The notes beneath the pieces were generated by a model. The model made no database searches. It saw only the letters and a list, made by a program, of their open reading frames with translations, and was not told the origin of the DNA. Below are positions 16,477 through 40,754 of a stretch of DNA of 61,021 nt, piece after piece (position 1 is the first letter of the stretch; each line of letters opens with the position of its first letter). The position numbers were made by a program, and so were the translations under genes. This DNA is from an uncultured Bacilli bacterium (lineage in GTDB: Bacteria > Bacillota_I > Bacilli_A > RF39 > UBA660). The stretch spans positions 1-61,021 of the forward strand of contig CAKOQM010000002.1 in NCBI GenBank assembly GCA_934101275.1, written 5' to 3'.

Positions 16477-16505
16477 ATAATATCAAAGTTAGGAAGGGTA
16501 GTCAA
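16477..16505 (-). promoter_or_regulatory. tracrRNA promoter
   Basis: On the minus strand: TTGACT (16505-16500), 17-nt spacer, TATTAT (16482-16477). The predicted transcription start is about 16470, the first base of the anti-repeat. The -35 box overlaps the cas9 ATG. Confidence 0.5.
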
Positions 16506-19500: not shown

Positions 19501-20548
19501 TTATCAGGAAAAATACATGCATTATAATTTGAATTATGGTCTTGTCAAAGAATTCAATGATAAATTAAAAGAAGATAAAGATTATCAAACATTATGTTCA
19601 GGAATTGTTGTAAATAGTTTAGATGAAAAATATCAAAATGATTTTGCTATAATTTCGCCTAATCTATGCAATTCAGAAACTGGAGAATTAATTTTTGACG
19701 CAAAAGCATTTAATGAACTTGTTGAAAATACCCTATATCGTAATGATATATTAGTTAGTAGAAAGTCTGAAATCAGAACAGGAGAATTTTATGATCAAAA
19801 TCCTTTAAAAAAGGGAAAAGGCAATATTTCTATAAATAAAAACATGCCAGCTAATATCTATGGTGGCTTCAGTAGCGTTAAGCCTTCTTATTTAGTTTTT
19901 GTAAAATATAATGATAAAACAAAATTGATTGGCATTCCAATATATATAGCCTGTGAAGAAAATAAAAATGCAAATATAAAAGCTATTTTTATAAAAGAGC
20001 ACTTGAAATTAAAGGATAATGACACTTTTGAAATAATAAAGGATAAAATTCCATTCGAAACATTAGTTTTACATAAAGAGCAAAAATGTTATATTAAAGG
20101 ATACAGTGTCGCCCATAAAAATTGTGAATTATCAAATGCATGTCAGTTGAAAATATCGAAGGCTTTTATGAAAAAATATAAAGAACTTTTAAGAAAGGTT
20201 TACAAGCGTAATTATGACAATATTACTTCAGAAGATATTCAGGCTGCTATTTCTTTTGTAAATTATTTGTTTAATTGCAAAAAAGATTATCCTTTATTTG
20301 AAGGAAAAATATCAGAACTTGAAATTAATCTTGATGTACAAAATATGTCTTTTGAGCAACTTGCTATTCTTATAAAAAAAGTATTATCAATATATAAATG
20401 TGTAAGTTCTACTGAAAATTTTAAAGATTTGAGCTATAACAAAGATATTGGTAGATTAGGTGATATTAATATAGCTAATCCAATTTTTATTTTTACTTCT
20501 GTAACAGGTTTATATCAAAAAGTAGTTGATTTTTCAGGTGATAAATGA
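16505..20548 (+). CDS. cas9: type II-A CRISPR-associated endonuclease Cas9
   Basis: 1347 aa. RuvC-I IGLDIGTTSVGWAII, Arg-rich bridge helix RRKKRGVRRRYERRRERI, HNH YEIDHILPRTL...DNRALVCRECNQNKG, RuvC-III DYHHAHDAYL. Confidence 0.97.
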   Translation: MKNYNIGLDIGTTSVGWAIIDDQTNEIMKKKRKSLWGVRLFDEAQTAEDRRKKRGVRRRYERRRERIRLLQEEFKEEINKVDKDFYQKLAETKYNLEKDKINKTIKIKVAPTSITKFDENYKTIYHLRYDLMNSKEQKDIRLVYLALHHIIKYRGNFNYGGKSFNTESIDITSKLEEVFENIRNYCDILEINEDSLDAINYQEILNCLNEETKNDITKKLKEYFKSKEFPVNFANELSNALVGKKFNVGKLFNMELDEKLEINFESTDYEDKSDKIEKLSDYAIELLEEVKELYDEISLKKIFKNSKQISLSGLMIERYDIHQKDLALIKETLKQNRDIYNKFFKTRKNDSKACLYEQYIHNHLTANDFCKELNNCLEKNNMVIEDADFNRRLLNDEILPRITSTENGIFPYGLNRQELVKIIENQGVYYPFLLNKIGEEYKIVKLYDFRIPYYVGPLVSRKKSDNAWLIRRSDGKITPYNFDEVIDKERTAEKFILRMISHCTYLLDECALPNCSLLYNRFKVLNELKQIRINNGSYAEKIPVEQQNIIIEKLFKQTSGSITDKKFREFLQNELGYDFYSDELKITGYSADGKFANNMQSYYDFFGEDGIFKGTDYTKDDAEEIIRWITIFEDKDILKRKVIDAYPELSSAQVKSVLAKKYKGWGRLSKKLLVGLTIKDKETNLPKSIIDLMAETDKNFMQIINDDEYKFDRLIAKENKVSEQEELSYDVVSKLATSPANKRGIYQALKVVQELVQYMGDAPKNIMIEMARGNEKKVRKDDRKKYLQNLYEKIKKENKSVYALYYKNLDSKLKKAEKIDTDKLFLYYLQEGKCLYCMKPIEIEKLGLNDSTYEIDHILPRTLVKDNSWDNRALVCRECNQNKGADLVLKRVIRDNCNTFWKRLNDNKLLSNKKLYRLTRREYSEEDIKGFINRQLVETRQITKHVGHILQSYYPETNVVYYKADISHSYRERYKLYKFRDLNDYHHAHDAYLAAVLGNYQEKYMHYNLNYGLVKEFNDKLKEDKDYQTLCSGIVVNSLDEKYQNDFAIISPNLCNSETGELIFDAKAFNELVENTLYRNDILVSRKSEIRTGEFYDQNPLKKGKGNISINKNMPANIYGGFSSVKPSYLVFVKYNDKTKLIGIPIYIACEENKNANIKAIFIKEHLKLKDNDTFEIIKDKIPFETLVLHKEQKCYIKGYSVAHKNCELSNACQLKISKAFMKKYKELLRKVYKRNYDNITSEDIQAAISFVNYLFNCKKDYPLFEGKISELEINLDVQNMSFEQLAILIKKVLSIYKCVSSTENFKDLSYNKDIGRLGDINIANPIFIFTSVTGLYQKVVDFSGDK

Positions 20549-21417
20549 GTTTTCGAACAGTAGTAATATCTAGACAATCTAAAATAAGTTATAAAAACAG
20601 ATATTTAGTAGTTAAAAGGGATAATGATGAAAAATATGTTCATTTATCGGAAATAGATACGATAGTGGTTGATTCTGTATCGGTATCTATTTCTGCCTAT
20701 CTTTTAAGAGAACTTGCTGACGCCAAAATTAATATCATTTTTTGCGATGAAAATCATAATCCTTTTGGTGAACTTAAGCCTTATTACTCAAGACATAATT
20801 CAAGCAAAATAATAAAGAAACAAATTAATTGGTCAGAGAAAAAGAAAAATGAATTATGGGCGAAAATTGTTAAAAATAAAATAACCAACCAAGCCTTGTT
20901 TTTAAAAAAACTTCATGATGACAAATACGAGTTAGTTTTAAGTTATGTTGATGAGGTAACAATAGGTGACAAAACTAATAGAGAGGGCCATGCAGCTAAA
21001 GTATACTTTAACTGTTTATTTGGTAAGAGTTTTTCTAGAGATGATAACAATGTAATAAATAGTGCTTTAAATTATGGCTATTCTGTTTTATTGTCAACTA
21101 TTAATAAAGAAGTTATTGTTAACGGGTTTTTAACTCAATTGGGAATTCATCACAAAAATGAATTTAATGAGTTTAATTTAAGCTGTGATTTAATGGAGCC
21201 GTTTCGAGTTATCATTGATAATTTTGTATATTATAACCAAGCTAGAGAATTTAATACAAACTATAAAATGGACATTATTAATATTTTCAATACAACATTT
21301 AAATACCAAAATAAGACTTATACTTTAAAAGATATATTAAGCATGTATGTTAAAAATACTTTAAATATTATGAATGGTGACGAAGAATATAGGGATTTTA
21401 TATATTATGAGGGATAG
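20545..21417 (+). CDS. cas1: CRISPR-associated endonuclease Cas1 (type II)
   Basis: 290 aa. FRTVVIS...KISYKNRYLVV, NREGHAAKVYF, NSALNYGYSVL...GIHH. Overlaps the cas9 stop. Confidence 0.95.
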   Translation: MSFRTVVISRQSKISYKNRYLVVKRDNDEKYVHLSEIDTIVVDSVSVSISAYLLRELADAKINIIFCDENHNPFGELKPYYSRHNSSKIIKKQINWSEKKKNELWAKIVKNKITNQALFLKKLHDDKYELVLSYVDEVTIGDKTNREGHAAKVYFNCLFGKSFSRDDNNVINSALNYGYSVLLSTINKEVIVNGFLTQLGIHHKNEFNEFNLSCDLMEPFRVIIDNFVYYNQAREFNTNYKMDIINIFNTTFKYQNKTYTLKDILSMYVKNTLNIMNGDEEYRDFIYYEG

Positions 21418-21727
21418 AGTTGTGCGGACAATAGTGTTTTTTGATTTACCAAATGTATATTCGAGTGATAAAAGAAATTATAATAAGTTTAGAAAATATC
21501 TTTTAAACGAAGGATTTATTATGATGCAAGAATCTGTATATTCAAAGTTAGTATTAAATAATAATCAATCTGATTTACTTATGAAACGTTTAAAAAAGAA
21601 TGCACCTAAGAAAGGCTTAATACAGGTTTTAACTATAACGGAACAGCAATATTCTAAAATCGAGTATATTATTGGTCAAGGCCAAAGTAAAATTGTAAAT
21701 AATGAAGATAGGTTGGTTATTTTATGA
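21407..21727 (+). CDS. cas2: CRISPR-associated endoribonuclease Cas2
   Basis: MRDRVVRTIVFFDLP...QESVYSK. Starting at the internal ATG 21407 gives 106 aa and an 11-nt overlap with cas1. The ORF-track start at 21374 is probably too early. Confidence 0.9.
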   Translation: MRDRVVRTIVFFDLPNVYSSDKRNYNKFRKYLLNEGFIMMQESVYSKLVLNNNQSDLLMKRLKKNAPKKGLIQVLTITEQQYSKIEYIIGQGQSKIVNNEDRLVIL

Positions 21728-22398
21728 ATTTAAATGTTAAATATTTTGATAATACGATAGTCTTTAATAAAGAATTTATTAATGTTTTAGAAATTGAAAA
21801 TAAAAAATATTTTTATCGATTTATTAAAGATTTGTATTATATTAGTTTTAGTAACATAACAGAGGATGCTCATTTTTTTGAAAATGAAAAAGAAATTAAT
21901 ATGTCAAATAAATTAAGAATATATGTTGATTTTTTTGACTTTCAATTTGATTCTAAGAAATATGTTAATGATATTTCTAAATATGTGTCAGCAAATATAA
22001 GTGATGATGATAAAAGTAGTCTTGTTGCTCTTTATAATAAAATGGTTAAACAGTATAGTAAAATTTTAAATGATGCTGAAATCCCTCTTAGGATAGAAAG
22101 TGAATTTAGTGTTGATAACTTAAATAAATTAATGAAAATATCCATTGATAATAAAGAAGACCTGCTTGATAATTTACTATTATTAATAGATTTAGAAAAA
22201 GCATTAAAATTAAACAATTTACTCATTTTTGTTAACTTGAAACAGTATTTATCTAAGGATGAATTAAGTGAATTATATAAGTATTCTATTTATAACGAAG
22301 TTATTATTTTTCTTATTGATTCTCAAAGTTACGGAGTATGCCTCAATTATGAAAAGAAGCATATTATTGATGAAAATTTGGATGAGTTTGTGTTATAA
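21724..22398 (+). CDS. csn2: CRISPR-associated protein Csn2 (type II-A marker)
   Basis: 224 aa. It is in the fourth cas position directly before the array, with the N-terminal ...NVLEIENKKYFYRFIKDLY pattern typical of Csn2. Overlaps the cas2 stop. Confidence 0.85.
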   Translation: MNLNVKYFDNTIVFNKEFINVLEIENKKYFYRFIKDLYYISFSNITEDAHFFENEKEINMSNKLRIYVDFFDFQFDSKKYVNDISKYVSANISDDDKSSLVALYNKMVKQYSKILNDAEIPLRIESEFSVDNLNKLMKISIDNKEDLLDNLLLLIDLEKALKLNNLLIFVNLKQYLSKDELSELYKYSIYNEVIIFLIDSQSYGVCLNYEKKHIIDENLDEFVL

Positions 22399-22470
22399 TT
22401 TAATCAGATGACATGAATACCATTTGGACTAATATTGTTCTATGGATATTAGGACACAGGATTAATTTGA
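22399..22470 (+). promoter_or_regulatory. CRISPR leader with candidate promoter
   Basis: 72 nt lie between the csn2 stop and the first repeat. Candidate promoter: TTGGAC (22424-22429), 17 nt, TATTAG (22447-22452). The leader ends ...ATTTGA immediately before the repeat G, resembling the type II-A leader-anchoring motif ATTTGAG. Confidence 0.5.
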
Positions 22471-24353
22471 GTTTTAGTTCTGTGTCATCCTAAATGGTAT
22501 TAAAACTCATCGGTTTACTCATAGAATCCACCTAGAGGTTTTAGTTCTGTGTCATCCTAAATGGTATTAAAACAATAATTGAAGAACAACCATATTGTCA
22601 ATTGTTTTAGTTCTGTGTCATCCTAAATGGTATTAAAACATTATTCTAAAATCACAACCTCCACAACCTGTTTTAGTTCTGTGTCATCCTAAATGGTATT
22701 AAAACCATTATTTTAGTGGTTTACATATGTGTAATGTTTTAGTTCTGTGTCATCCTAAATGGTATTAAAACAGTGATGTTTCTTTCTAAGATAGTATTTA
22801 TGTTTTAGTTCTGTGTCATCCTAAATGGTATTAAAACAAATCCTAATGCTATTGTAATCAAATATGGTTTTAGTTCTGTGTCATCCTAAATGGTATTAAA
22901 ACTGAGTTGGATAATAAAATAAATAAAGCTATGTTTTAGTTCTGTGTCATCCTAAATGGTATTAAAACTACTACAGGGCTACGATTCAAAGTATCATTGT
23001 TTTAGTTCTGTGTCATCCTAAATGGTATTAAAACTTATCCTTTCTAGCGTTTTACCCCTCGCCAGTTTTAGTTCTGTGTCATCCTAAATGGTATTAAAAC
23101 CCACTAAGTAATTGTACTTTAGAACCGTTAGTTTTAGTTCTGTGTCATCCTAAATGGTATTAAAACAAGAAAACGGCGTTATTAAGTATGGTTTTGGTTT
23201 TAGTTCTGTGTCATCCTAAATGGTATTAAAACATTATTCTAAAATCACAACCTCCACAACCTGTTTTAGTTCTGTGTCATCCTAAATGGTATTAAAACCA
23301 TTATTTTAGTGGTTTACATATGTGTAATGTTTTAGTTCTGTGTCATCCTAAATGGTATTAAAACAGTGATGTTTCTTTCTAAGATAGTATTTATGTTTTA
23401 GTTCTGTGTCATCCTAAATGGTATTAAAACAAATCCTAATGCTATTGTAATCAAATATGGTTTTAGTTCTGTGTCATCCTAAATGGTATTAAAACTGAGT
23501 TGGATAATAAAATAAATAAAGCTATGTTTTAGTTCTGTGTCATCCTAAATGGTATTAAAACTACTACAGGGCTACGATTCAAAGTATCATTGTTTTAGTT
23601 CTGTGTCATCCTAAATGGTATTAAAACTTATCCTTTCTAGCGTTTTACCCCTCGCCAGTTTTAGTTCTGTGTCATCCTAAATGGTATTAAAACCCACTAA
23701 GTAATTGTACTTTAGAACCGTTAGTTTTAGTTCTGTGTCATCCTAAATGGTATTAAAACCTGTGTTGCCTTCTTTGTCTTTTAAAACCAGTTTTAGTTCT
23801 GTGTCATCCTAAATGGTATTAAAACAATGGTATATAGTTTATCAATATTAGCATTGTTTTAGTTCTGTGTCATCCTAAATGGTATTAAAACAAAATTTGT
23901 CCGAGATGTAAAAAACCTTATGTTTTAGTTCTGTGTCATCCTAAATGGTATTAAAACGGCACTTTTATTGAAAGTTTTGAGGAATTTGTTTTAGTTCTGT
24001 GTCATCCTAAATGGTATTAAAACTATCGTTTTCGTAAAAGTATAGGTCGCCGTGTTTTAGTTCTGTGTCATCCTAAATGGTATTAAAACTAAGGGAGCAA
24101 TTATAATTAAAATGGAAAAGTTTTAGTTCTGTGTCATCCTAAATGGTATTAAAACACCAATCATTGAAGAACAATTAAGACTTTTGTTTTAGTTCTGTGT
24201 CATCCTAAATGGTATTAAAACACCGGAAATTATACAGTTTGTTATGGATTTGTTTTAGTTCTGTGTCATCCTAAATGGTATTAAAACTATCGACTTTTAA
24301 AGTTCCAGTTCCTTCTAGTTTTAGTTCTGTGTCATCTCAAATGGTATTGACTC
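22471..24353 (+). CRISPR. type II-A CRISPR array, 29 repeats and 28 spacers (20 unique)
   Basis: 36-nt repeat GTTTTAGTTCTGTGTCATCCTAAATGGTATTAAAAC with 29-31-nt spacers. The final repeat (24318-24353, GTTTTAGTTCTGTGTCATCTCAAATGGTATTGACTC) has 5 substitutions, which fits the leader-distal end. Confidence 0.98.
22640..23723 (+). repeat. intra-array tandem duplication of eight spacer-repeat units
   Basis: Spacers 3-10 (22640-23130) recur identically as spacers 12-19 (23233-23723), offset by 593 nt. Only spacer 11 (23167-23196, AAGAAAACGGCGTTATTAAGTATGGTTTTG) is unique between the two copies. Confidence 0.95.
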
Positions 24354-29947: not shown

Positions 29948-31941
29948 TGAAAAGAAATAATCAAAATACAATAAAAAATTTATTTCCTTATCTTATTTTA
30001 GTGGTTGTTATTTTTGCCGTATTAAGTTTCTTAAACTTAGGCGGTACAATAACACATGAAATTACAACAGGTGAATTAATTAAGGAAATGGGTAATAAAA
30101 ATGTCACTGAAATTACGATTACTCCTAGTAGCGAAGAAAGTGTTTACTATGTAGAAGGTAAATTAAGTAACTATAAAGATTCTGAAAAGTTTAAAGCTAC
30201 TATTGTAGAAGCTGAAGTAGAAAACATTACAAAGTATGCCGAATCAAATAATCTTAAAGTTTATGAAACGAATCCAGATCCAGGTTCTATTTCATGGATT
30301 TACATTTTAGTAAATGTGGTTCCTTTAGTTGTTTTAGTTGGTGCTTCTTACTTTATCTTTATTAAAATGGCTAATAGTAATAAAGGAAGTATGGATTTTG
30401 GTAAGAGTCGCGCTAAATTATCTGCAGATGGCGGAAAAGTTCGTTTCAAAGACGTTGCAGGTTTAAAAGAAGAAAAAGAAGAAGTAGCCGAACTTATTGA
30501 CTTCTTAAAAAATCCTAAAAAATTCCAAAAATTAGGGGCTCGTATTCCTAAAGGTGTTTTACTTGTAGGTCCTCCAGGAACTGGTAAAACTTTACTTGCT
30601 AAAGCCGTAGCTGGTGAGGCTAATGTACCATTTTACTTTATAAGTGGTTCTGATTTCGTTGAATTATTTGTTGGTGTTGGAGCAAGCCGTGTTCGTGATA
30701 TGTTTAAAGAAGCCAAAAGAAATGCTCCATGTCTAATCTTTATTGATGAAATCGATGCTGTAGGGCGTCAAAGAGGTTCTGGTATCGGTGGTGGACATGA
30801 TGAAAGAGAACAAACTTTAAACCAATTACTTACTGAAATGGATGGTTTTGGTGCTAATGAAGGTATCATTATCATTGCTGCAACTAATAGACCAGACGTT
30901 TTGGACCCTGCTTTATTAAGACCAGGACGTTTCGATAGACAAGTTACTGTAAACCTTCCCGATACAGAAGAACGAGAAGCAATATTAAAAGTTCATGCTC
31001 AAAATAAAATTTTAGCGCCTTCTGTTAACTTAAAGAGTATTTCTCAAAGAACATCAGGTTTTTCTGGTGCAGACTTAGAGAACCTAATGAATGAGGCTGC
31101 TTTACTTGCCGTACGTAAAAATGAAGATGCGATTACTTTAAAAGATATTGATGAAGCAACCGACCGTGTATTAATGGGTCCTGCTAAAACAAGTCGTAAA
31201 GTAAGTGATGACATTAAATGGTTAACCGCAGTTCATGAATCAGGTCATGCCGTATTAGGCTTAAAATTAAAAGATGCGATGGAAGTTCAAAAAATCACTA
31301 TTGTACCACGTGGTATGGCGGGTGGTTATACCGCTTATACCCCAAAAGAAGATAATATTACAAGATATACGAAAAATGAAATGATTGCCATGATTACAAG
31401 TAGTTTAGGTGGTCGTGCTGCCGAAGAATTATTCTTAGGGGATGTCACAACAGGAGCTAGCGATGACTTTAAACGTTCAACGAATCTTGCTCGTAGTATG
31501 GTTACTGAATATGGTATGAGTGATCTAGGCCCAATTCGCTATGAACAAAATACTAGTGAAAATGTTTTCTTAGGTAGAGATTATAACAAAACAAAGAACT
31601 ATTCTGATCAAGTAGCTTTAGAAATTGATAAAGAAGTTCAAAAAATCATTACCAAATGTTATGATAATGCGAAGAAAATTCTCGAAGAAAATAAAGACTT
31701 AGTCATGCTTCTTTCTCATACCTTAATTGAAAAAGAAACGATTACCAAAGAACAAATTGATGAATTAGTTAGAACAGGTAAAATCGAAGATGAAGAATTT
31801 GATATTAGTGATGAACCTACTTTAACAAAACTACGTGAAGAAGCCAAATCATTAAAAATCAAAGGTTATTCAAAAATGAGTAAAGAAGAACTTGAAGAAA
31901 AAATTAAAGAAAAAGAACAAGAGACGGAACAAAAAGATTAG
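29947..31941 (+). CDS. ftsH: ATP-dependent zinc metalloprotease FtsH
   Basis: 664 aa. Two TM segments, Walker [24 protein letters not shown] region, and zinc site HESGHAV. Confidence 0.97.
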
Positions 31942-31954
31942 TTTCGTCTTTTTT
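31923..31954 (+). terminator. ftsH terminator
   Basis: GACGGAAC (31923-31930) pairs with GTTTCGTC (31941-31948), giving 8 bp with one G-U. The stop codon sits in the loop, and T6 follows. Confidence 0.6.
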
Positions 31955-31997
31955 CATGTAAAATTTATTCTAATTAACAACCGTCTGGAAAATATTT

Positions 31998-32162
31998 CTA
32001 TTCTTTTTTTTCATCTTTTTTCATTTTTTCAATTTTATTTTCTAGTTGTCTTACATAATTATTAGCATGCGATAAGGCATTAGATACTCTTTTGAGTTCA
32101 CTTTTTAATTTTCTATTTTCTTCTCTTAATTTAAAATTTTGTTTTATTAAATCACTTGTCAT
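31998..32162 (-). CDS. possible 54-aa coiled-coil peptide (below ORF-track cutoff)
   Basis: The minus strand reads MTSDLIKQNFKLREENRKLKSELKRVSNALSHANNYVRQLENKIEKMKKDEKKE*. It has a heptad-like charge pattern but only a weak RBS, and it is divergent from the RT gene. Confidence 0.25.
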   Translation of the reverse strand: MTSDLIKQNFKLREENRKLKSELKRVSNALSHANNYVRQLENKIEKMKKDEKKE

Positions 32163-32288
32163 ATACTTCAATCTTTCTTTGCTATACTAAGCATTATCCT
32201 TTGTTTTAATGATAATTGCAATATTTTTATGTTCTTTTCATAAAATCTGTGAACAGTAACCTAAATGTAAAAAGAAAGCCGAAAAATG

Positions 32289-32297
32289 TGATACAAT
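32289..32297 (+). promoter_or_regulatory. extended -10 promoter candidate upstream of the RT
   Basis: TGaTACAAT, with a weak -35. It would start a transcript at about 32304. Confidence 0.35.
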
Positions 32298-32310
32298 GTA
32301 AATAATTTAG

Positions 32311-32339
32311 ATATCATTAAAATTTATGATATTTTTTTT
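32311..32339 (+). other. hairpin plus U-tract immediately 5' of the RT ribosome-binding site
   Basis: ATATCAT (32311-32317), 8-nt loop, ATGATAT (32326-32332), T7 (32333-32339). RBS GAGGTG follows 10 nt later. It could be an attenuator, an ncRNA 3' end, or part of an ncRNA. Confidence 0.35.
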
Positions 32340-32358
32340 AGAAGATTGAGGTGTTTTT

Positions 32359-33867
32359 ATGAGATTAGTAACAAGTATGAGTGCAGCAAAAGCAAAAGAA
32401 TTTTTTTTAAAATCTGAAAGTTATTTTAGTTTTGATTTACCTATATATTTTGATTTTGAATCAATTCTTCAATTATCAGATTCGTTAATCATGGGTAAAA
32501 ATTTTATGAATACAATAGTAAAAAGTAGAGCCGATGCTCCTGAAAAAAAAGAAAATGTTGATTATTTTATAATACATAATAAGGATGGAAAATATGCATG
32601 GAGACCGTTTGAATTAATTCACCCAATACTATATGTAAAACTAGTTAATGATATATGTGAATCTAAGAATTGGAGTGAAATTAAAAAAAGATTAAAAGAG
32701 TTACATTCTAATCCAAATATTATTTGTTGTAGCATGCCAGGTGAATCTAAAAGTAAAAAAACAGATAAAAAAGAAAATATTTTACGATGGTGGAATGAAT
32801 ATGAACAAAGAAGTATCTCAACATCCTTAGAATATTCATTAATGGCAAATACCGATATATCAAATTGTTATCCATCAATATACACCCATTCAATATCATG
32901 GGCATTACATACTAAATCAATCTCCAAAGCTACCAAAGGTGATTTATCATACATTGGTAATTTGATAGATAAAGATATTGTAAATATGAGATACGGGCAA
33001 ACAAACGGAATTCCTCAAGGAAGTATTTTAATGGACTTTGTTGCTGAAATTGTTTTAGGATATTGTGATGAATTACTTACAGAAAAATTAAATAACTTAA
33101 ATATAAAAGATTATAAAATTTTAAGATATAGAGATGACTACAGAATATTTTGTAATAATAGTTTTGAGTTGGAATTAATTTTAAAGAGCTTATCAGAAGT
33201 ATTAATTGAATTGAATTTTAAATTAAATACTGCAAAAACATACTCAACAAAAGATATAGTAATAAAATCTGTAAAAGATGATAAAATTAGCAGATTCATT
33301 AATCAGAATAGTTTTGAAAAATTAACTTTACAAAAACAATTGTTTTTGATAAACAAATTCAGTAAAGAATATCCTAATAGTGGCAGTCTAATTGTCTTAT
33401 TGAATGATGTTTTTAAAGAAAAAATAGAGAAAATGAAAAAAAGGCCAAACAGTTATGAACAAGTTATAAGTATTGTTATTGACATAATGTACAATAATCC
33501 AAGAACATATCCAATATGTGTAGCAATATTAAGCCATATTTTTAAATTTTTTGATAAAACAAAAATTGAAAAATATATAGATTTAATTATCAATAAGTTT
33601 AAGTCATTAACAAATACTATTTATTTAGAAATATGGTTACAACGATTAACTATTCCAATTGATAGAAATAAAAAATATTCTAGTGGAAGTATATGCGAAA
33701 AACTCTATAATAAATCAATGAATATTTGGAATTCAGAATGGTTAAGAGAGAATATTAGAAGACAATTTGATGAAAATTTAATTATCAATGAGCATGAAAT
33801 TGCAAAAATGCTATTATATTTATCACGCACAGAAGTGGATGCTTTTTCTATTGGATACGATATATAA
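32359..33867 (+). CDS. stand-alone reverse transcriptase of the Abi/UG (defence-associated, DRT-like) type
   Basis: 502 aa. TDISNCYPSIYTHS (motif A), NGIPQGSILMDFVAEIVL (motif B region), RYRDDYRIF (YxDD box at 33127-33138). It has an N-terminal extension of about 160 aa and a helical C-terminal region of about 200 aa. No intron maturase/endonuclease, retron or DGR hallmarks are visible. Confidence 0.85.
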   Translation: MRLVTSMSAAKAKEFFLKSESYFSFDLPIYFDFESILQLSDSLIMGKNFMNTIVKSRADAPEKKENVDYFIIHNKDGKYAWRPFELIHPILYVKLVNDICESKNWSEIKKRLKELHSNPNIICCSMPGESKSKKTDKKENILRWWNEYEQRSISTSLEYSLMANTDISNCYPSIYTHSISWALHTKSISKATKGDLSYIGNLIDKDIVNMRYGQTNGIPQGSILMDFVAEIVLGYCDELLTEKLNNLNIKDYKILRYRDDYRIFCNNSFELELILKSLSEVLIELNFKLNTAKTYSTKDIVIKSVKDDKISRFINQNSFEKLTLQKQLFLINKFSKEYPNSGSLIVLLNDVFKEKIEKMKKRPNSYEQVISIVIDIMYNNPRTYPICVAILSHIFKFFDKTKIEKYIDLIINKFKSLTNTIYLEIWLQRLTIPIDRNKKYSSGSICEKLYNKSMNIWNSEWLRENIRRQFDENLIINEHEIAKMLLYLSRTEVDAFSIGYDI

Positions 33868-33882
33868 AAAATACGCTGTATC

Positions 33883-34761
33883 CTAGATTGTTAGGGGTGA
33901 AAAATTATAGTCAGAGTAGCCATTACTAAAATCAATACCAGAAGTGTTATCATAAATATTATTAGAATAAGTAGAACAAACATTTATGACAGATTTCTTC
34001 ATCATAGTTAAAGGTTGATCTAATATTTCAACTGTATAATTAATCAATTTTTGAAAACAAAACCAATCTAAATAATGTTGTAAATGTTTAGTGGAAACAC
34101 CTTTAAAATGAGATAAAAAAGTTGCTGATTCGGAATGCAATGAATTTATATTTTCAAGATTATAACCATTGTTATTAACGTGAGTCCATGATTTTATTTG
34201 TTCTAAATTTATATTATTTTCTTTAGCAAATTTTTCATAAGAAGACTTACAATCTGTAATAAGACAATTTATCTTTTTTGCTTTATCTTTAAAAATACTT
34301 TTTACCTGTTCTGATGTTATTGGTCCAGTACCAGCAATTTCTAAAAAGCAATTGTCACATTCATCTATTGCTGAAGCAATACATACTTGGCGATTACTTA
34401 TACCTCTCTTTGAGCCACCTTTAGAAGACCGAGGTTTTGAAAATCTCGGCATATTTTTTGTTTTCTTTCCTTTTAAATTAATAGATTTTCTTATTATTGA
34501 AATACTATTTAAAACCTTGTGTTTTAATAAAAAAACTGTGTTTTTGTTACAATTCATTTTCGCTGCTGTCTTTTTGATAGAAAACTTATCATTCATGCAT
34601 TCAAAAAATATTAAAATTTGATTATATTTTAGCTTAGTATGTGAAAGAGGCATACTGGTACATGAACTAAATTTTTTTGAACAATCCTTGCAATAGTAGG
34701 TTTGAACTTTGTTTTTATCATGTCCGTTTTTAATAATATTGTTAGATTTACAGCGGCACAT
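33883..34761 (-). CDS. IS1595-family (ISXO2-like) DDE transposase, probably 5'-truncated IS remnant
   Basis: 292 aa. N-terminal zinc-ribbon remnant ...KSNNIIKNGHDKNKVQTYYCKDCSKKF. DDE region: ...ASAIDECDNCFLEI, CLITDCKSSYEKFA, ENINSLHSESATFLSHFKGVSTKHLQHYLDWFCF. There is no upstream UTR or inverted repeat, because the ATG abuts the ImmA fragment. Confidence 0.7.
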   Translation of the reverse strand: MCRCKSNNIIKNGHDKNKVQTYYCKDCSKKFSSCTSMPLSHTKLKYNQILIFFECMNDKFSIKKTAAKMNCNKNTVFLLKHKVLNSISIIRKSINLKGKKTKNMPRFSKPRSSKGGSKRGISNRQVCIASAIDECDNCFLEIAGTGPITSEQVKSIFKDKAKKINCLITDCKSSYEKFAKENNINLEQIKSWTHVNNNGYNLENINSLHSESATFLSHFKGVSTKHLQHYLDWFCFQKLINYTVEILDQPLTMMKKSVINVCSTYSNNIYDNTSGIDFSNGYSDYNFSPLTI

Positions 34762-34965
34762 GAGTTAGGTCATATATTATTGCATACAGGAATTAAAGCC
34801 AATAATTTTTTATGTCCAATATCTGGTACAAAGAATGATATCGAAAAAGAAGCATACTCTTTTGCATCTAATTTACTTATGCCAATGGCTGAATTAAATA
34901 AAAGAGTCGACTTATATCAAGATGAAAATGGAAAAGTGGGATTGGATGAATGTTTACAACATTAA
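34744..34965 (+). pseudogene. ImmA/IrrE-family zinc metallopeptidase, N-terminally truncated fragment
   Basis: RFTAAHELGHILLH (HExxH) ... EKEAYSFASNLLMPMAEL matches the ImmA/IrrE (COG2856) core. Sequence upstream of about 34744 is the antisense of the transposase gene, so the N-terminal part of the gene is missing. Confidence 0.6.
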
Positions 34966-35016
34966 CATATAAATTCTTGTTAATTATTTTTTATAATTCG
35001 CTAAAATAAAGATGCT

Positions 35017-35367
35017 ATGTTATACTATCTATATAACCTAGGAAGTGATTATGTGAAAGAACTTGAAGAAAAAATAGTTAAGTTTGCTAAGGATAGGGAT
35101 TGGTTACAATTTAATACGCCAGAAAACTTGGCTAAATCGATTTCTATTGAAGCTGGCGAGCTCCTTGAATGTTTTCAATGGAACAATAATTATGATAAAA
35201 ATGAATTAAAGTATGAAATAGCTGATGTGCTTAATTATTGTATTCTGCTTTGTCATCAGATAGGCGTTGACCCTAAAGAAATAGTTTTAGAAAAAATGGA
35301 TATTAGCGCTCAAAAATATCCTATTGAAAAAGCAAAAGGTAAGAGTACAAAATACGATAAATTATAG
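35017..35367 (+). CDS. MazG-like nucleotide pyrophosphohydrolase (small all-alpha type)
   Basis: FAKDRDWLQFNTPENLAKSISIEAGELLECFQW...EIADVLNYCILL. The likely true start is GTG 35053 (MKELEEKI..., RBS AGGAAG), giving 104 aa. Confidence 0.8.
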   Translation: MLYYLYNLGSDYVKELEEKIVKFAKDRDWLQFNTPENLAKSISIEAGELLECFQWNNNYDKNELKYEIADVLNYCILLCHQIGVDPKEIVLEKMDISAQKYPIEKAKGKSTKYDKL

Positions 35368-35406
35368 AAAGTTTAACGTTTGAATAATGGTTTGTAGGTG
35401 AAGTAA

Positions 35407-37287
35407 ATGTTAGTTTATGAAGGAATAAAATCTGAATTTATGGATGATGTTGACTTAGGGATTATTGCAGATAAAATTAGAAATAAATATATAGAAGTTA
35501 TTAAAAGAAAACCTAGTATTCCCGAATTTGACTCTTGGAAAAATTCTTTACAATATATGAGAGGAGTTCTAAGTGATAACGAGATACCAAATAACAGTGG
35601 TATTGCCATAGAATACAATATACCTCCTACTGGTTGTAGAATTGATTTTATGATGTCAGGTTATAATAAAGAAAAGTCTAATATAATTATTATTGAATTG
35701 AAACAGTGGAGTGTTGCTAAAGAAGTAGATGAAGTTGATGGCATCTATAAAGTAAATACTTATACAGGACATAGTTTAAGAGATGTTGTTCATCCGTCAT
35801 ATCAAGCTATGACATATGCTAATCTAATAAAAGATTATAATGAACTAGTACAACAAAAAAATATAAATGTAATACCTTGTGCCTATCTGCATAATTACTA
35901 CTTTGAGGATGATGACACATTACTTTCTGGTCATTACAAAGAATATATAGACAATGCTCCTTTGTTTGGTCATAATGATGTGGTTAAATTAAGAAACTTT
36001 ATAAAAAAATACATATTAGAAGGTGACGACGGCAACTTACTTTATGAAATTGAAAGTGGAAAAATAAGACCATCAAAAATGTTGCAGGATTCTTTAAGCG
36101 ACATGCTAAAAGGTAATAAAGAATTTTACATGATTGATAATCAGAAAATAATTTATGAATATGCCATTAGAAATGCCATTGATACTATTTCTAAAAATAA
36201 GAAAAGCGTTATGATTATAAGAGGTGGTCCTGGAACTGGAAAATCTGTGTTGGCTATCAACCTTCTTGTTGAATTAAATAATAGAAATATGACATGCTTT
36301 TATGTAACTAAAAATATGGCTCCTAGAAATGTTTATTCAACTAAATTACGAGGAAATTTCACAAAAACATATATCAATCATTTATTTCAAGGCTCCGGTA
36401 ATTTTATAGATGCTGAAAAAAATGAATTAGATTGTTTAATAGTTGATGAAGCACATAGATTAACTGAAAAGTCAGGCAGTTATCAAAACAAAGGCGAAAA
36501 TCAAGTTAAAGAGATTATTAATGCCTCAAGATTTTCTGTATTTTTTCTTGACGAAGACCAAAGGGTAACTTTAAGAGATATTGGTAGTGAAGACTTAATT
36601 AAAAAATATGCTAATGAACTCGGGGCAGGTATATACTTATTTGAATTAGATAGTCAGTTTCGTTGCAATGGTTCGGATGGTTACTTAGCCTGGCTTGATA
36701 GGATTTTAGAAATCAGAGATACAGCTAATCTTGATATAGATGGTTTTGATTATGATTTTAGAGTACTTGATGATCCAAATGAATTAAGAAAATTGATTGA
36801 AGAAAAAAATCGTCTTAATAATAAATCACGCATTGTTGCAGGTTACTGTTGGGAATGGCCAAAAGGAAGTTCTAGAAATAATACAAATTATCATGAAATA
36901 CAAATTTCTGAGAAAAATTTTGAAATGAGTTGGAATTTAGAGGCTGGTGAGTCTTTTGCAATAGGTTCTACATCTGTTAATGAGGTAGGATGTATTCATA
37001 CCGTTCAAGGATTGGAATTTGATTATATTGGTGTCATAATTGGGAACGATATGAGATATGAAAATGAACATGTTGTGACAGATTACAGAAAAAGAGCTAA
37101 AAGTGACAGTTCATTAAAAGGCATAAATAAAATAGCCAAAGAACAGGGTCAAGAAACAGCAGATGAAATTGCTGGAAAAATCATAAAAAATACGTATAGA
37201 ACATTAATGACCCGCGGATTAAAAGGATGTTATGTTTATTGTACTGATGAAAAATTAAGTGAATATATAAAGAAAAATATAAAGTAG
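35407..37287 (+). CDS. DUF2075-type nuclease-helicase (Nhi-like: PD-(D/E)xK domain plus SF1 ATPase)
   Basis: 626 aa. GCRIDFMMSG...IIIIELKQW (D...ExK), Walker A RGGPGTGKSVLA, Walker B LIVDEAHRL, C-terminal IHTVQGLEFDYIGVIIG and YRTLMTRGLKGCYVYC. Confidence 0.75.
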   Translation: MLVYEGIKSEFMDDVDLGIIADKIRNKYIEVIKRKPSIPEFDSWKNSLQYMRGVLSDNEIPNNSGIAIEYNIPPTGCRIDFMMSGYNKEKSNIIIIELKQWSVAKEVDEVDGIYKVNTYTGHSLRDVVHPSYQAMTYANLIKDYNELVQQKNINVIPCAYLHNYYFEDDDTLLSGHYKEYIDNAPLFGHNDVVKLRNFIKKYILEGDDGNLLYEIESGKIRPSKMLQDSLSDMLKGNKEFYMIDNQKIIYEYAIRNAIDTISKNKKSVMIIRGGPGTGKSVLAINLLVELNNRNMTCFYVTKNMAPRNVYSTKLRGNFTKTYINHLFQGSGNFIDAEKNELDCLIVDEAHRLTEKSGSYQNKGENQVKEIINASRFSVFFLDEDQRVTLRDIGSEDLIKKYANELGAGIYLFELDSQFRCNGSDGYLAWLDRILEIRDTANLDIDGFDYDFRVLDDPNELRKLIEEKNRLNNKSRIVAGYCWEWPKGSSRNNTNYHEIQISEKNFEMSWNLEAGESFAIGSTSVNEVGCIHTVQGLEFDYIGVIIGNDMRYENEHVVTDYRKRAKSDSSLKGINKIAKEQGQETADEIAGKIIKNTYRTLMTRGLKGCYVYCTDEKLSEYIKKNIK

Positions 37288-37321
37288 CTTTTGAGAGCAT
37301 TTATGATGGGAATGGTAGTTT

Positions 37322-38893
37322 ATGAAAATGTCTGAGGAAATAAAAGATTTTGGTAAAGAATATGTTTATGAACAATATACGAGAATTGTAGAAGATTTTA
37401 AGGAATATGAGAAGATAACAAAGACGAAAATGTTAGAGGCCATTTATAAAGTTTATGAGGATTCTTATAATATTATTGATATTTGTACAACAAGAGAACT
37501 AAAATTTTTAAAAATGACATTAGATTATATGGTAAATCATCATGATGATTCATCAAAACAAATGCTATTTTCTGATAAATATAATTGGGAAAGGAATATT
37601 CTAAGAGATAAATTTTTGCTTTATCGTTCTTTTGATGATGATATTAGTATTCCTGAAGAAATAGTAGATAAAGTAAAGGAAGCTTTAAAAAAGGTTAAGT
37701 GGGCTGACCAAAAGAAAATAGATGATATCAATGAATTTTTAGTAAGTTATTGTAAAATGCAAGGTTCAGCCTTTTTGCCATCTGTTTGTCAAATTGGTTC
37801 GGTTGTCACAGGGGCAAAAGAAGAATCATTATGGCAACACATGTTAAATAATAAATTATTTAATTATTATGTTTTCCTTCGTTTACAAGAAGTCGAAGAC
37901 TTAAAAGAACCAATGCCTGTTGCTATCTTTAATGACTTTTTTGATATTGCAGATGACTTAGATGAACAAAGAAAAAAACAAGGTCTTGCTGGTAATATAA
38001 ATATTGACTCGAAAAAATTTAAAACAATGTTTTATAATGATTTTGATATTTATAATCCTAAAATCAAAAAATTTCTAAAAGAGTTACGTGATTTATCTTT
38101 TTGTTGGCCATCAGTCATTAAGCCAATTAGAGATTATGCTATGCTTAATCTTGAAAGAGATTCTTTAAAAGAGCTTATAAAAAGTGTTCCTGCTTTAAAC
38201 AATATAGATTTAACTAAATTTTTTAAAATCTTAGATGAAGCGATGGACGAGATGCCATCTGGGGCTTTAAATGGCTGTACCCCTAATGAAGCTAAACAGA
38301 TTAAAGTGCGAGAATTAAAAAATAGAATGAATAAAGAAGAAAGATATGTTGAGCAAAAAAATGCCTGTTTATCTAAAAAAGATGTCGACTTATTTTATAA
38401 AATCTATTTTACTTTATTAGAATTTACGAACGAAAAATATAAGATAAATCCTCATCTTAAACTTTATAATCAAAAAGCCATCAATCCAGCTGAAATGGAA
38501 GATGTTATAAATAAATATTGGGAGAATAAGGAATTTATAACGACAGAATTTTGTCTAGCTAATCCTTATAAATTTAATAAGGAAGAGTTAAGTTTAACCA
38601 GTGAATTTAAAAAAGGTATTAGAAGAATGTTTATTATTTGTCGTTATGAAGAAGAATACACGGCTTTATTAACCGAAGAAAAAGTTTATATGATAAAGGG
38701 CTTAAATGTTAATATTGATGAAATTATTCCTTATGATGAACTACCTTATGCGGTTACAACATCAATTATTCCTTTTAAAGGTAATTTAGTTTACGATAGT
38801 TTGTTTTTTGGCACTGACATAAAATTAGGCGTAGGCTTTGAGGAAATGATTGATAAAGAGTATGAACAAACAATGAAATATTATCACTTGTAA
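37322..38893 (+). CDS. 523-aa hypothetical protein, no recognisable motif
   Basis: A long uninterrupted ORF, co-oriented 34 nt after the helicase gene and followed by a strong terminator. No P-loop, nuclease or TM signature was seen. Confidence 0.6.
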   Translation: MKMSEEIKDFGKEYVYEQYTRIVEDFKEYEKITKTKMLEAIYKVYEDSYNIIDICTTRELKFLKMTLDYMVNHHDDSSKQMLFSDKYNWERNILRDKFLLYRSFDDDISIPEEIVDKVKEALKKVKWADQKKIDDINEFLVSYCKMQGSAFLPSVCQIGSVVTGAKEESLWQHMLNNKLFNYYVFLRLQEVEDLKEPMPVAIFNDFFDIADDLDEQRKKQGLAGNINIDSKKFKTMFYNDFDIYNPKIKKFLKELRDLSFCWPSVIKPIRDYAMLNLERDSLKELIKSVPALNNIDLTKFFKILDEAMDEMPSGALNGCTPNEAKQIKVRELKNRMNKEERYVEQKNACLSKKDVDLFYKIYFTLLEFTNEKYKINPHLKLYNQKAINPAEMEDVINKYWENKEFITTEFCLANPYKFNKEELSLTSEFKKGIRRMFIICRYEEEYTALLTEEKVYMIKGLNVNIDEIIPYDELPYAVTTSIIPFKGNLVYDSLFFGTDIKLGVGFEEMIDKEYEQTMKYYHL

Positions 38894-39085: not shown

Positions 39086-39871
39086 ATGGCAAAAGTTATT
39101 TCATTAGTAAACCAAAAAGGCGGTGTTGGAAAGACAACAACAAGTATTAATTTAGCGGCTGCTTTAGGCAAAGAAGGAAAAAAGACACTTTTAATAGATT
39201 TGGACCCTCAAGGAAATGCTTCCAATGGTCTTGGCTTAAATAATAATGATTTTGAGCATGATATCTATGATGTTATTACAGGTGCTTGCAACATAAAAGA
39301 AGCTATCATTAAAACAAAATTTAAAAATTTATCCATTATTCCAGCAACTATCAATTTAGCGGGTGTGGATGTCGAATTTATTAGGAAAATGTATGAAGAT
39401 ACAACATTCCATCAAAATGAACAATTAAGAATGTGTCTGGAAGAAATCAAAGATAAATATGATTATATCATTATTGATTGTCAACCATCACTAGGAACCA
39501 CGGCGATGAATGCTTTAGTCGCGAGTGATTCTGTCATCATTCCTGTTCAATGCGAATACTATGCTCTTGAAGGTATTACACAACTTTTAAATTCTATTAT
39601 AATGGTCCAAAATAAAATGAATCCTAATTTACGAATTGAAGGTGTTTTACTAACCATGCTAGATGGAAGAACAAACATTGGCTTAGAAGTTATTGAGGAA
39701 GTACGTAAATGCTTTAAATCCAAAGTATTTAATACGATTATTCCAAGACTTGTGCGTTTGGTAGAAGCTCCAAGTCATGGTAAACCTATCAGTGATTATG
39801 ACCCAACGAGCCGAGCTACTTTAGCTTATCAAAATTTAGCAAAGGAAGTGATTAGTCGAAATGGAGACTAA
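39086..39871 (+). CDS. parA: chromosome-partitioning ATPase ParA/Soj
   Basis: 261 aa. Deviant Walker A NQKGGVGKTTT, DLDPQGN, IIIDCQPSLG. Confidence 0.92.
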   Translation: MAKVISLVNQKGGVGKTTTSINLAAALGKEGKKTLLIDLDPQGNASNGLGLNNNDFEHDIYDVITGACNIKEAIIKTKFKNLSIIPATINLAGVDVEFIRKMYEDTTFHQNEQLRMCLEEIKDKYDYIIIDCQPSLGTTAMNALVASDSVIIPVQCEYYALEGITQLLNSIIMVQNKMNPNLRIEGVLLTMLDGRTNIGLEVIEEVRKCFKSKVFNTIIPRLVRLVEAPSHGKPISDYDPTSRATLAYQNLAKEVISRNGD

Positions 39872-40754
39872 GAGAAAAGCCTTAGGAAAAGGACTTGAGC
39901 AATTATTTTCAAATGAAGTCATTAATTTTGAAAACTTTGAAAAAAACACCATTGCTGAAGCAGAACAAAAAAGTACAGTTGGTGAAATTAAAGTAAGTGA
40001 AATAAGAAGTAATCCTTACCAACCTCGTAAAACTTTTAATGAAGAAACCTTAAATGAGCTTGCCGCGTCTATTAAAGAACATGGGGTCATTGAACCTATT
40101 ATTGTCAAAAAAGCGATTAAAGGTTATGAACTTGTTGCTGGTGAAAGAAGACTTAAAGCGGCTAAAATAGCAGGATTAGAAACCATTCCAGCCGTTGTGA
40201 GAGATTTTAATGACCAAGAAATGATGGAAATTGCTCTTTTAGAAAATATTCAAAGAGAAGATTTAAATCCTATAGATGAAGCGACGGCTTATCAAAAAAT
40301 TATTGAACTTGGTGGTTTTACGCAAGAAGAATTTGCCGAAAAATTCGGTAAAAGTAGAAGCCATGTTACTAATATGTTAGGGTTATTATCTTTACCTTCT
40401 TTAGTTAAAATATATGTTCAAGAAGGTCATTTATCTATGGGGCATGCAAGAGCTTTAAGTAAATTAACGGATGAAGAAAAAATAAATGAACTCGCTAATA
40501 AAGTGATTAAAGAAAACTTAAGCGTTCGGGCTTTAGAACAACTTTTAAATGAGGAACAACTACCTAAAAAACAAGAACAAGAAAAACAAAAAGAACCTAA
40601 AAATATTCGTAACTCTATTTACGAAAGAATGATGCGTGAAAAAGTTGGTACAAAAGTACGTATCAATACAAAAAAAATTGAAATTCCATATGATTCCCCT
40701 AAAGATTTAGAAAGAATCTTGGAAATACTAGGTATTAGAATTGAGGGATTATAA
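39861..40754 (+). CDS. parB: chromosome-partitioning protein ParB/Spo0J
   Basis: 297 aa. NPYQPRK, VAGERRLKAAKIAG, an HTH region, and overlap with parA. Confidence 0.92.
   Translation: METKRKALGKGLEQLFSNEVINFENFEKNTIAEAEQKSTVGEIKVSEIRSNPYQPRKTFNEETLNELAASIKEHGVIEPIIVKKAIKGYELVAGERRLKAAKIAGLETIPAVVRDFNDQEMMEIALLENIQREDLNPIDEATAYQKIIELGGFTQEEFAEKFGKSRSHVTNMLGLLSLPSLVKIYVQEGHLSMGHARALSKLTDEEKINELANKVIKENLSVRALEQLLNEEQLPKKQEQEKQKEPKNIRNSIYERMMREKVGTKVRINTKKIEIPYDSPKDLERILEILGIRIEGL

Follow-up and report, generated by a model that had tools for sequence, protein, structure and literature searches.

A stand-alone reverse transcriptase-like gene of an uncultured gut Bacilli bacterium as a very probable Abi-P2 polymerase, with a leader hairpin that most likely controls its expression

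Introduction

A stretch of DNA from an uncultured Bacilli bacterium (GenBank assembly GCA_934101275.1, contig CAKOQM010000002.1, positions 1 to 61,021 of the forward strand; 61,021 nucleotides (nt) in all, called the window below) carries a single gene for a 502-amino-acid (aa) protein that resembles a reverse transcriptase (RT). Just before the gene lies a hairpin that runs into a row of T residues. Does this protein work with a dedicated non-coding RNA (ncRNA), as some anti-phage RTs do, or is it a polymerase that needs no RNA partner? A first-pass annotation, made from the letters of the window, had described it as a candidate RT(+ncRNA) defence module of unassigned class. We are confident that the protein is instead Abi-P2 (AbiP2, Class 1 of the UG/Abi RTs), an untemplated stand-alone anti-phage polymerase; the hairpin in its leader most likely serves expression control.

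The protein and its family

The gene and its active-site motifs are the following (all on the + strand).

32359..33867, +: Abi-P2-family polymerase gene, 502 aa and stop codon (open reading frame (ORF) list, PADLOC AbiP2, PDB 7R08, Foldseek)
32446..32448, +: Tyr30 codon (in DLPIYFDF); the residue predicted to prime, aligned with Tyr61 of Abi-P2 (ELPAYINF)
32854..32856, +: Asp166 codon; catalytic aspartate of motif A (TDISNCYPSIYTH), an invariant column
33127..33138, +: Y257-R-D259-D260, motif C (YRDD), in RYRDDYRIF; Y257, R258, D259 and D260 are invariant
33256..33864, +: all-helical domain at the C-terminus, from about residue 300 to 502, corresponding to the alpha-Rep/HEAT-like lobe found in Class 1 UG/Abi RTs (AlphaFold model, superposition on 7R08, PMC9508834, PMC12783706)

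We assign the protein to Abi-P2 on four independent lines, namely the profile, the sequence match to a solved structure, the homology to the founding genes and the predicted fold, and the priming residue agrees with them. The PADLOC profile for AbiP2 (PDLC03744) matches residues 2-497 over positions 5-484 of its 489, with an E value of 4.4e-187 and 620.8 bits. The runner-up classes Drt6, UG14 and Drt4 reach about 170 bits, which leaves AbiP2 450 bits ahead of any other DRT or UG class. Drt3b reaches 125 bits and AbiK 107 bits, against 621 for AbiP2, and the Drt2 and Drt9 models are not among the best 25 of the 36 PADLOC matches. Pfam detects RVT_1 only, and in NCBIfam the Drt4 model scores 118 bits against a cut-off of 450, with Drt3b also far under its curated cut-off.

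The comparison with individual proteins points the same way. Against solved structures the top phmmer match is 7R08 (E 3e-78, residues 2-463), which is the Abi-P2 of the Escherichia coli prophage P2-EC30 (PMC9508834). A tblastn search of phage records finds the genes of P2-EC30, P2-EC58 and pro147 at 33.8-35.5% identity over 92-99% of the query, with E values of 1e-71 to 1e-73. An AlphaFold model made from 34 homologues has a pLDDT of 91.3 and a pTM of 0.91. It predicts a bilobal fold, in which an RT-like palm and fingers lobe is joined to a C-terminal helical (alpha-Rep/HEAT-like) domain, with helices from residue 300 to about 431 and further short C-terminal helices at a pLDDT above 90. Foldseek superposes this model on 7R08 along the whole chain (about 519 alignment columns) with template modelling (TM) scores of 0.86/0.89 and a root mean square deviation of 2.7 A. 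The scores fall to at most 0.62 for DRT6, DRT4 and AbiK (at most 0.57 for AbiK) and to about 0.33 for the DRT2 and DRT9 structures.

The residues that matter for activity are in place. The ORF holds the RT motif segments TDISNCYPSIYTHS (with Asp166), NGIPQGSILMDFVAEIVL and RYRDDYRIF. Tyr30, Asp166 and Y257-R-D259-D260 are invariant in an alignment of 34 homologues that reaches down to 45% identity; this alignment has 80 invariant residues, all of which the window protein has by construction. In the phmmer alignment with 7R08, Tyr61 faces Tyr30, while Tyr46 faces Phe15. Figiel et al. found that the Abi-P2 mutant Y61F is unable to polymerise DNA and that Y46F behaves as wild type (PMC9508834). 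Tyr257 aligns with Tyr282 of Abi-P2, the counterpart of the DNA-contacting Tyr245 of AbiK (PMC9508834). Judged by its sequence, the RT gene is intact, with both the active site and the priming tyrosine kept.

Much of the first-pass annotation stands. The 502-aa ORF and the RT motifs are where it placed them, and it recognised a single-gene RT of the Abi/UG clade, neither retron nor group II intron, with a C-terminal region that turns out to be the helical lobe of Class 1. It also saw no co-oriented effector, and the next gene is indeed an IS1595-family transposase gene on the opposite strand. The stretch of about 160 aa that it called an N-terminal extension adds no separate domain. It aligns with the N-terminal part of the RT-like lobe of Abi-P2, which has the priming loop; in Abi-P2 the region of the priming tyrosine is a loop of the fingers (PMC9508834, PMC12783706). 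Nor does the class need to stay unassigned. PADLOC classification and structure prediction put the protein in a characterised class of identical architecture, one that the same annotation had listed as protein-primed and template-independent.

Historically Abi-P2 was tied to P2 prophages, and the window gene lies outside any P2-like hypervariable region. This location does not exclude membership, because the published account of AbiP2 is of a multi-domain protein that stands alone and is "highly mobile across different MGEs" (mobile genetic elements; PMC9226505). Standard defence annotators would give the gene the label AbiP2, and we believe it can carry that label with confidence. A low-GC gut Bacilli example thereby joins a family characterised only from E. 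coli prophages. The importance of this beyond annotation is small.

Proposed activity

Abi-P2 is described as conferring resistance to phage (T5 in E. coli) by abortive infection. For the window protein the one sign of such a role is context, as relatives of the gene lie among restriction-modification, Mrr, PLD-helicase and Abi_2 genes. Abi-P2 is a trimeric (or hexameric) assembly, is purified without nucleic acid and polymerises DNA untemplated (PMC9508834). AbiA, AbiK, Abi-P2 and DRT4, all of Class 1, share template-free DNA synthesis (PMC12783706), and PMC13174585 sums up Class 1 as untemplated.

By homology with the P2-EC30 enzyme, the window protein would form trimers, or perhaps hexamers, by way of the helical lobe at its C-terminus. 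The hydroxyl of Tyr30 would act as the primer, and the site formed by D166, D259 and D260 would polymerise single-stranded DNA (ssDNA) covalently bound to its own protein, with neither an RNA nor a DNA template. The ssDNA product may be held in a channel between the two lobes, as the family suggests (PMC9508834, PMC12783706). Upon phage attack the self-made ssDNA would accumulate and lead to abortive infection, if the protein behaves as DRT4 does. In the DRT4 model a phage DNA-binding protein shields the self-made ssDNA from host exonucleases and the ssDNA turns toxic (PMC12783706). For the way in which DNA made by Abi-P2 may stop phage, the DRT4 model is the nearest worked example. We infer the enzymatic activity, the oligomeric state and the phage defence of the window protein in this way, by analogy.

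Relatives and their neighbourhoods

The family is large. At E values of at most 1e-10 the window protein matches 5063 clusters, and at least 597 species genomes, spread over many phyla, have a relative, as does one archaeal metagenome-assembled genome (MAG). The identical protein occurs on 5 contigs from at least 4 independent metagenome assemblies, in the same context wherever flanks are present. The nearest named genomes are gut MAGs of uncultured Bacilli, "Bacillales" and Mycoplasma sp. CAG:877-like bacteria. A scan of metagenomes gave 3 further usable loci of the window's sub-clade and a scan of IMG/VR gave 0; the one relative that turned up in IMG/VR is distant (L178, 35% identity).

About 15 loci of the sub-clade (58-96% identity) can be compared, and their flanking genes are different in each. 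Genes of defence are frequent there: a DNA methylase paired with a MutH-like nuclease, Mrr, a PLD-helicase, AAA_13, Abi_2 and DUF6339. The cassette recurs in defence islands. No partner gene is conserved across these loci; a helix-turn-helix (HTH) gene and an M78-Fic gene follow the RT as a pair in only 4. Ever-changing flanks of this kind fit the published picture of AbiP2 as stand-alone and mobile (PMC9226505).

Some of these neighbourhoods deserve to be recorded for their own sake. The methylase and MutH-like nuclease pair stands beside the RT in two contigs (L171, 778-3576; L172, 1-3923), and an AspBHI/Mrr-type enzyme, a PLD-helicase and an Abi_2 gene stand beside close relatives (L170, 5714-8896; L088, 1593-2525). 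In the P2-like Escherichia phage pro147 (L177, NC_028896.1, 22149-28627) the Abi-P2 gene adjoins a divergent retron Ec48, which consists of an RT and a membrane effector. This prophage has two RT-based defence systems in one variable region.

How much upstream DNA belongs to the gene

The leader of the RT gene has these parts.

32289-32297, +: extended -10 box TGaTACAAT, a putative promoter element; conserved as TGnTAtAaT in 7 of 8 aligned leaders, TATAAT without the TG in L003
32309..32339, +: leader stem-loop of 9 bp, 32309-32317 with 32326-32334, 8-nt loop, running into the T-run 32333-32339; minimum free energy -6.4 kcal/mol
32311-32339, +: inverted repeat ATATCAT-N8-ATGATAT followed by T7, seen in the sequence
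32348..32353, +: ribosome binding site (RBS) GAGGTG, 5 nt before the ATG; purine-rich Shine-Dalgarno-like sequences lie at the same place in relatives
32261..33873, +: unit common to the window and its closest relative L085 (96.6% nt identity), with promoter, leader and RT (blastn breakpoints)

How far the similarity reaches was read from blastn breakpoints of 31000-35500 against seven close relatives. It starts at 32261 in L085 (96.6% nt identity), 32270 in L003 (71.5%), 32287 in L088 (85%), 32289 in L086 (88%) and 32302 in L002 (77%), and at the ATG itself, 32358-32359, in L001 and L089 (78%). At the 3' side it ends at 33861-33873 in six of the seven, at most 6 nt past the stop codon, and at 33802 in L003. 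The upstream stretch that travels with the gene is therefore at most 57-98 nt before the ATG, and this in part of the sub-clade only. A blastn search with the whole 417-nt spacer between ftsH and the RT against 84 loci returns the identical contigs only; its 5' 300 nt are unique to this genome. What moves between defence islands is a minimal unit of promoter, leader and ORF.

Eight leaders can be aligned (the window, L085, L086, L088, L090, L002/L091, L172 and L003). They share the extended -10 box, about 12 nt, a 9-bp stem of the form (A)GATATCAT / ATGATAT(Y)(T), the T-run and the RBS. Of the stem cells, 94% are paired across the eight, and there is one compensatory change from AU to GC. Five stem positions vary by G.U only (9 cells, 0 A.C). 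Three other leaders (L170, L092 and L089) have unrelated hairpins with a U-run at the same position after a -10-like box (z scores of -2.8, -5.1 and -2.5), so that about 11 of the 15 sub-clade leaders have a hairpin with a U-run. Four equally close relatives lack it: L001/L173 (76% identity), L171 (72%), L174 (70%) and L179 (60%). A family-wide scan of the 110 nt upstream finds a hairpin with a T-run in 15 of 78 distinct leaders where 9.4 would be expected, an enrichment too slight to make it a feature of the family. It was not found in the E. coli phage pro147 copy. Within the window the palindrome ATATCAT-N8-ATGATAT occurs once against 0 expected.

The first-pass annotation had given the extended -10 box, the inverted repeat with its T7 and the GAGGTG at their correct positions, with a gap from T-run to RBS of 10 nt that is in fact 8 nt. 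It went too far in calling the upstream region structured, as dinucleotide shuffles of 32220-32358 fold equally well (z = 0.0). The "imperfect hairpin" that it saw at about 32190-32220 is at chance level (z = -1.3) and, like a U-rich tract at 31998-32045 and a small ORF, falls outside the unit shared with relatives. An Rfam scan of 31000-35500 at E values up to 1 gives zero matches. A consensus terminator scan passes over the leader hairpin, whose stem is too poor in G-C pairs.

What the leader hairpin does

The predicted transcription start lies about 7 nt past the -10 box and about 5 nt before the stem, so a terminated product would be about 35 nt long. We think the hairpin is most likely an expression-control element and not an RNA partner of the enzyme. 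The leader could act as a leaky intrinsic terminator, or as a stabilising 5' stem-loop, and so set the level of a potentially toxic self-priming polymerase. If it is an attenuator, this would be a simple means to hold such an enzyme low. In L172, L002 and L090 a co-oriented upstream gene ends 77-91 nt before the RT start codon, and there the hairpin would also terminate that gene. Three uses had been offered for the hairpin and U-tract in the first pass. The data favour the attenuator and speak against the 3' end of a dedicated ncRNA and a homopolymer template. Regulation of Abi-P2 expression is not addressed in PMC9508834, PMC12783706 or PMC9226505.

Could the element work as DNA instead? Right after the -10 box, just past the predicted transcription start, the palindrome GATATCAT-N-ATGATATC forms an inverted repeat of almost perfect symmetry, at a place where an operator for a dimeric repressor might sit. 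A candidate repressor is also at hand. XRE-type HTH and M78 peptidase-Fic genes follow the RT in L085, L086 and L001/L173, an M78-Fic remnant is left in the window, and the HTH_3 protein could repress the RT until infection. We nonetheless consider this unlikely. The departures from symmetry in the stem are all G.T on the + strand (the 9 cells at 5 positions noted above, with no A.C), as expected of RNA pairing and not of a DNA half-site. The spacing of the half-sites varies from 3 to 9 nt, and the stems at the same place in L170, L092 and L089 are unrelated. The palindrome and the HTH gene also go their own ways: L001/L173 have the HTH without the palindrome, L002 and L003 have the palindrome with no HTH within 6 kb, and from the window the HTH gene is gone. 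An operator for the HTH protein was rejected on this lack of co-occurrence and on the G.T-only pattern of mismatches.

The locus, and whether the gene still works

Upstream of the RT gene is ftsH; downstream come an IS1595-family transposase gene (IS, insertion sequence), a MazG-like gene, a helicase, a 523-aa ORF and parA.

31915-31955: strong hairpin across the ftsH stop codon, probable ftsH terminator; -14.9 kcal/mol, z = -4.5; A-rich 5' side, U-run on the 3' side
31998-32171, -: Lys/Glu-rich ORF of 54/57 aa between ftsH and the RT, called by metagenome gene finders
33883-34761, -: IS1595-family transposase gene (NCBIfam 105 bits), 16 nt past the RT stop codon
34744-34957, +: M78 peptidase-Fic remnant, 214 nt, 96% nt identity to L085 (full gene 449 aa)
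35017-35367, +: MazG-like gene
35407-37287, +: Schlafen group 3/DUF2075 helicase (Pfam 346 bits; weak PADLOC matches to AbiO, Nhi and PDC-S41)
37322-38893, +: 523-aa ORF with no family match
39086-40754: parA and parB homologues, directly after the island

The hairpin at 31915-31955 is probably the terminator of ftsH and could act in both directions. If ftsH ends in its own terminator, then the RT is a separate transcription unit that needs its own promoter. The divergent small ORF, which the first pass had already doubted, has no homologue in a search of 5.8 billion proteins; it is not part of the RT cassette and is probably either spurious or strain-specific. The MazG-like gene, the helicase and the 523-aa ORF (35017-38893, in one orientation) may be a second defence module in the island. 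Since parA and parB come directly after the island, the variable region lies between ftsH and the partition genes. Its insertion boundaries were not set by way of FtsH, because a look-up of the identical FtsH for an island-free strain returned the same arrangement only.

Elsewhere in the window there is a type II-A CRISPR-Cas locus at 16505-24353, with these parts.

16505-20548: cas9-sized ORF, 1347 aa
20545-21417: cas1, with cas2 after it
21724-22398: csn2
about 22538-24353: CRISPR array with a 66-nt period

Several points weigh against our reading of a working Abi-P2 gene with a regulatory hairpin. Identity to the characterised Abi-P2 is only about 34%, and for this reason activity and oligomeric state are extrapolated. 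The hairpin of the window leader is weak (-6.4 kcal/mol, z = -1.7), and the covariation score of the eight leaders, which was matched by 43 of 500 shuffles, is suggestive only. The locus, finally, is partly decayed. The transposase gene begins 16 nt beyond the RT stop codon, and the neighbours found in L085, L086 and L001/L173 are deleted or truncated: the HTH gene is gone, and the M78-Fic gene lacks its first 74 codons and its Fic part. An inverted-repeat search for the ends of the IS gave no convincing terminal repeats, and no second copy of it was found in the window.

These last facts raise the idea that the RT itself is a non-functional relic in a decaying, IS-disrupted island and has no present role. 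We find this improbable. The ORF is full length and has all 80 invariant residues (again, by construction), the AlphaFold model is confident throughout, and promoter, leader and RBS are intact. A relic would also be hard to square with the same protein on 5 contigs from at least 4 independent assemblies. The damage lies beside the Abi-P2 gene, and the gene itself we take to be whole.

Is there an RNA partner?

We return to the question posed at the outset. The case for an RT with a dedicated ncRNA, like DRT2, DRT3 or DRT9, with the hairpin and U-tract as the 3' end of that RNA or as a poly-U template, is not empty. A hairpin with T5-T8 is conserved before the RT in part of the sub-clade, the G.U-only mismatches point to an RNA-level element on the + strand, and DRT9 employs an ncRNA for protein-primed synthesis. 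But Abi-P2 belongs to Class 1, which is untemplated, and the purified enzyme is free of nucleic acid (PMC9508834, PMC12783706). The upstream 200-400 nt are not conserved among homologues, and the last 57-98 nt that are shared leave no room for an ncRNA of the DRT2 or DRT9 type. Any terminated product would be only about 35 nt. The hairpin is missing from the four equally close relatives and from the pro147 copy, Rfam gives no match, and shuffled sequence is as structured as the leader. We regard an ncRNA module as very improbable.

One could still imagine that an RNA of about 35 nt, made from the cassette's own promoter and ending in the hairpin and U8, is bound or copied by the polymerase, perhaps with the U-run as template or seed for dA synthesis in the manner of DRT9, or, in a milder version, that the hairpin is a conditional attenuator. 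This is a long shot. If it were true, a "template-independent" Class 1 enzyme would be RNA-assisted; in the milder version phage infection would read through the attenuator, and expression of the RT would thereby be tied to infection.

A retron RT or a group II intron RT has next to no chance and was rejected on curated cut-offs and fold: a generic RVT_1 domain and weak NCBIfam matches (51 bits for the group II RT/maturase TIGR04416, 28.5 bits for retron St85) are all that such a placement has in common with the protein, against cut-offs of 300 and 235, an Rfam scan with neither an intron nor an msr/msd RNA, and fold TM scores of at most 0.35 (about 0.31 for group II) where Abi-P2 gives 0.86.

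Comparison with known systems

DRT2 (UG2) and DRT9 (UG28), two defence RTs, come from the UG/Abi lineage as well; non-coding sequence precedes their genes, and DRT9 is also protein-primed. They are members of Class 2 and depend on an ncRNA that lies 5' of the RT and is sizeable, conserved and strongly expressed (PMC9226505). The window leader, in contrast, shares only 57-98 nt with its relatives, is optional and has no Rfam match, and the fold similarity is low (TM about 0.33).

DRT4 (UG15) and DRT6 (UG12) are nearer. Both are single-gene Class 1 defence RTs and give the next-best profile and fold matches, and DRT4 makes random untemplated ssDNA and acts by abortive infection (PMC12783706). 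However, they score at most 170 bits with TM about 0.6, and the NCBIfam Drt4 match is 118 bits where 450 is required. The priming residue also differs: DRT4 primes from Tyr125 of the palm, Abi-P2 from a tyrosine of the fingers loop (PMC12783706).

AbiK of Lactococcus lactis (PDB 7R06/7R07) and AbiA are likewise Class 1 UG/Abi enzymes, protein-primed and template-independent. Like Abi-P2 they combine an RT lobe with a helical lobe and form trimer-based oligomers. They are much more distant from the window protein (AbiK 107 against 621 bits; TM at most 0.57). The helical domains have no sequence homology, AbiK primes from Tyr44, and AbiA has a HEPN domain.

The Abi-P2 proteins of P2-EC30 (orf570; 7R08), P2-EC58 (orf544) and pro147 belong to the same family as the window protein by profile, sequence and predicted fold. 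The full-length P2-EC30 protein has 546 aa and the window protein 502, a similar size. They have the same bilobal architecture (predicted for the window), the priming tyrosine, YRDD and motif A, and each is encoded by a single gene that stands alone in variable or mobile DNA. They differ in several ways. The window protein is about 34% identical to the E. coli enzymes, its host is an uncultured low-GC gut Bacilli/RF39-like bacterium, its gene occupies a chromosomal island flanked by ftsH and parA and not a P2 prophage, and its promoter-proximal hairpin and U-run are absent from the phage copy. The kind of system is unaffected by these differences: the gene belongs to a class already characterised and shares its architecture.

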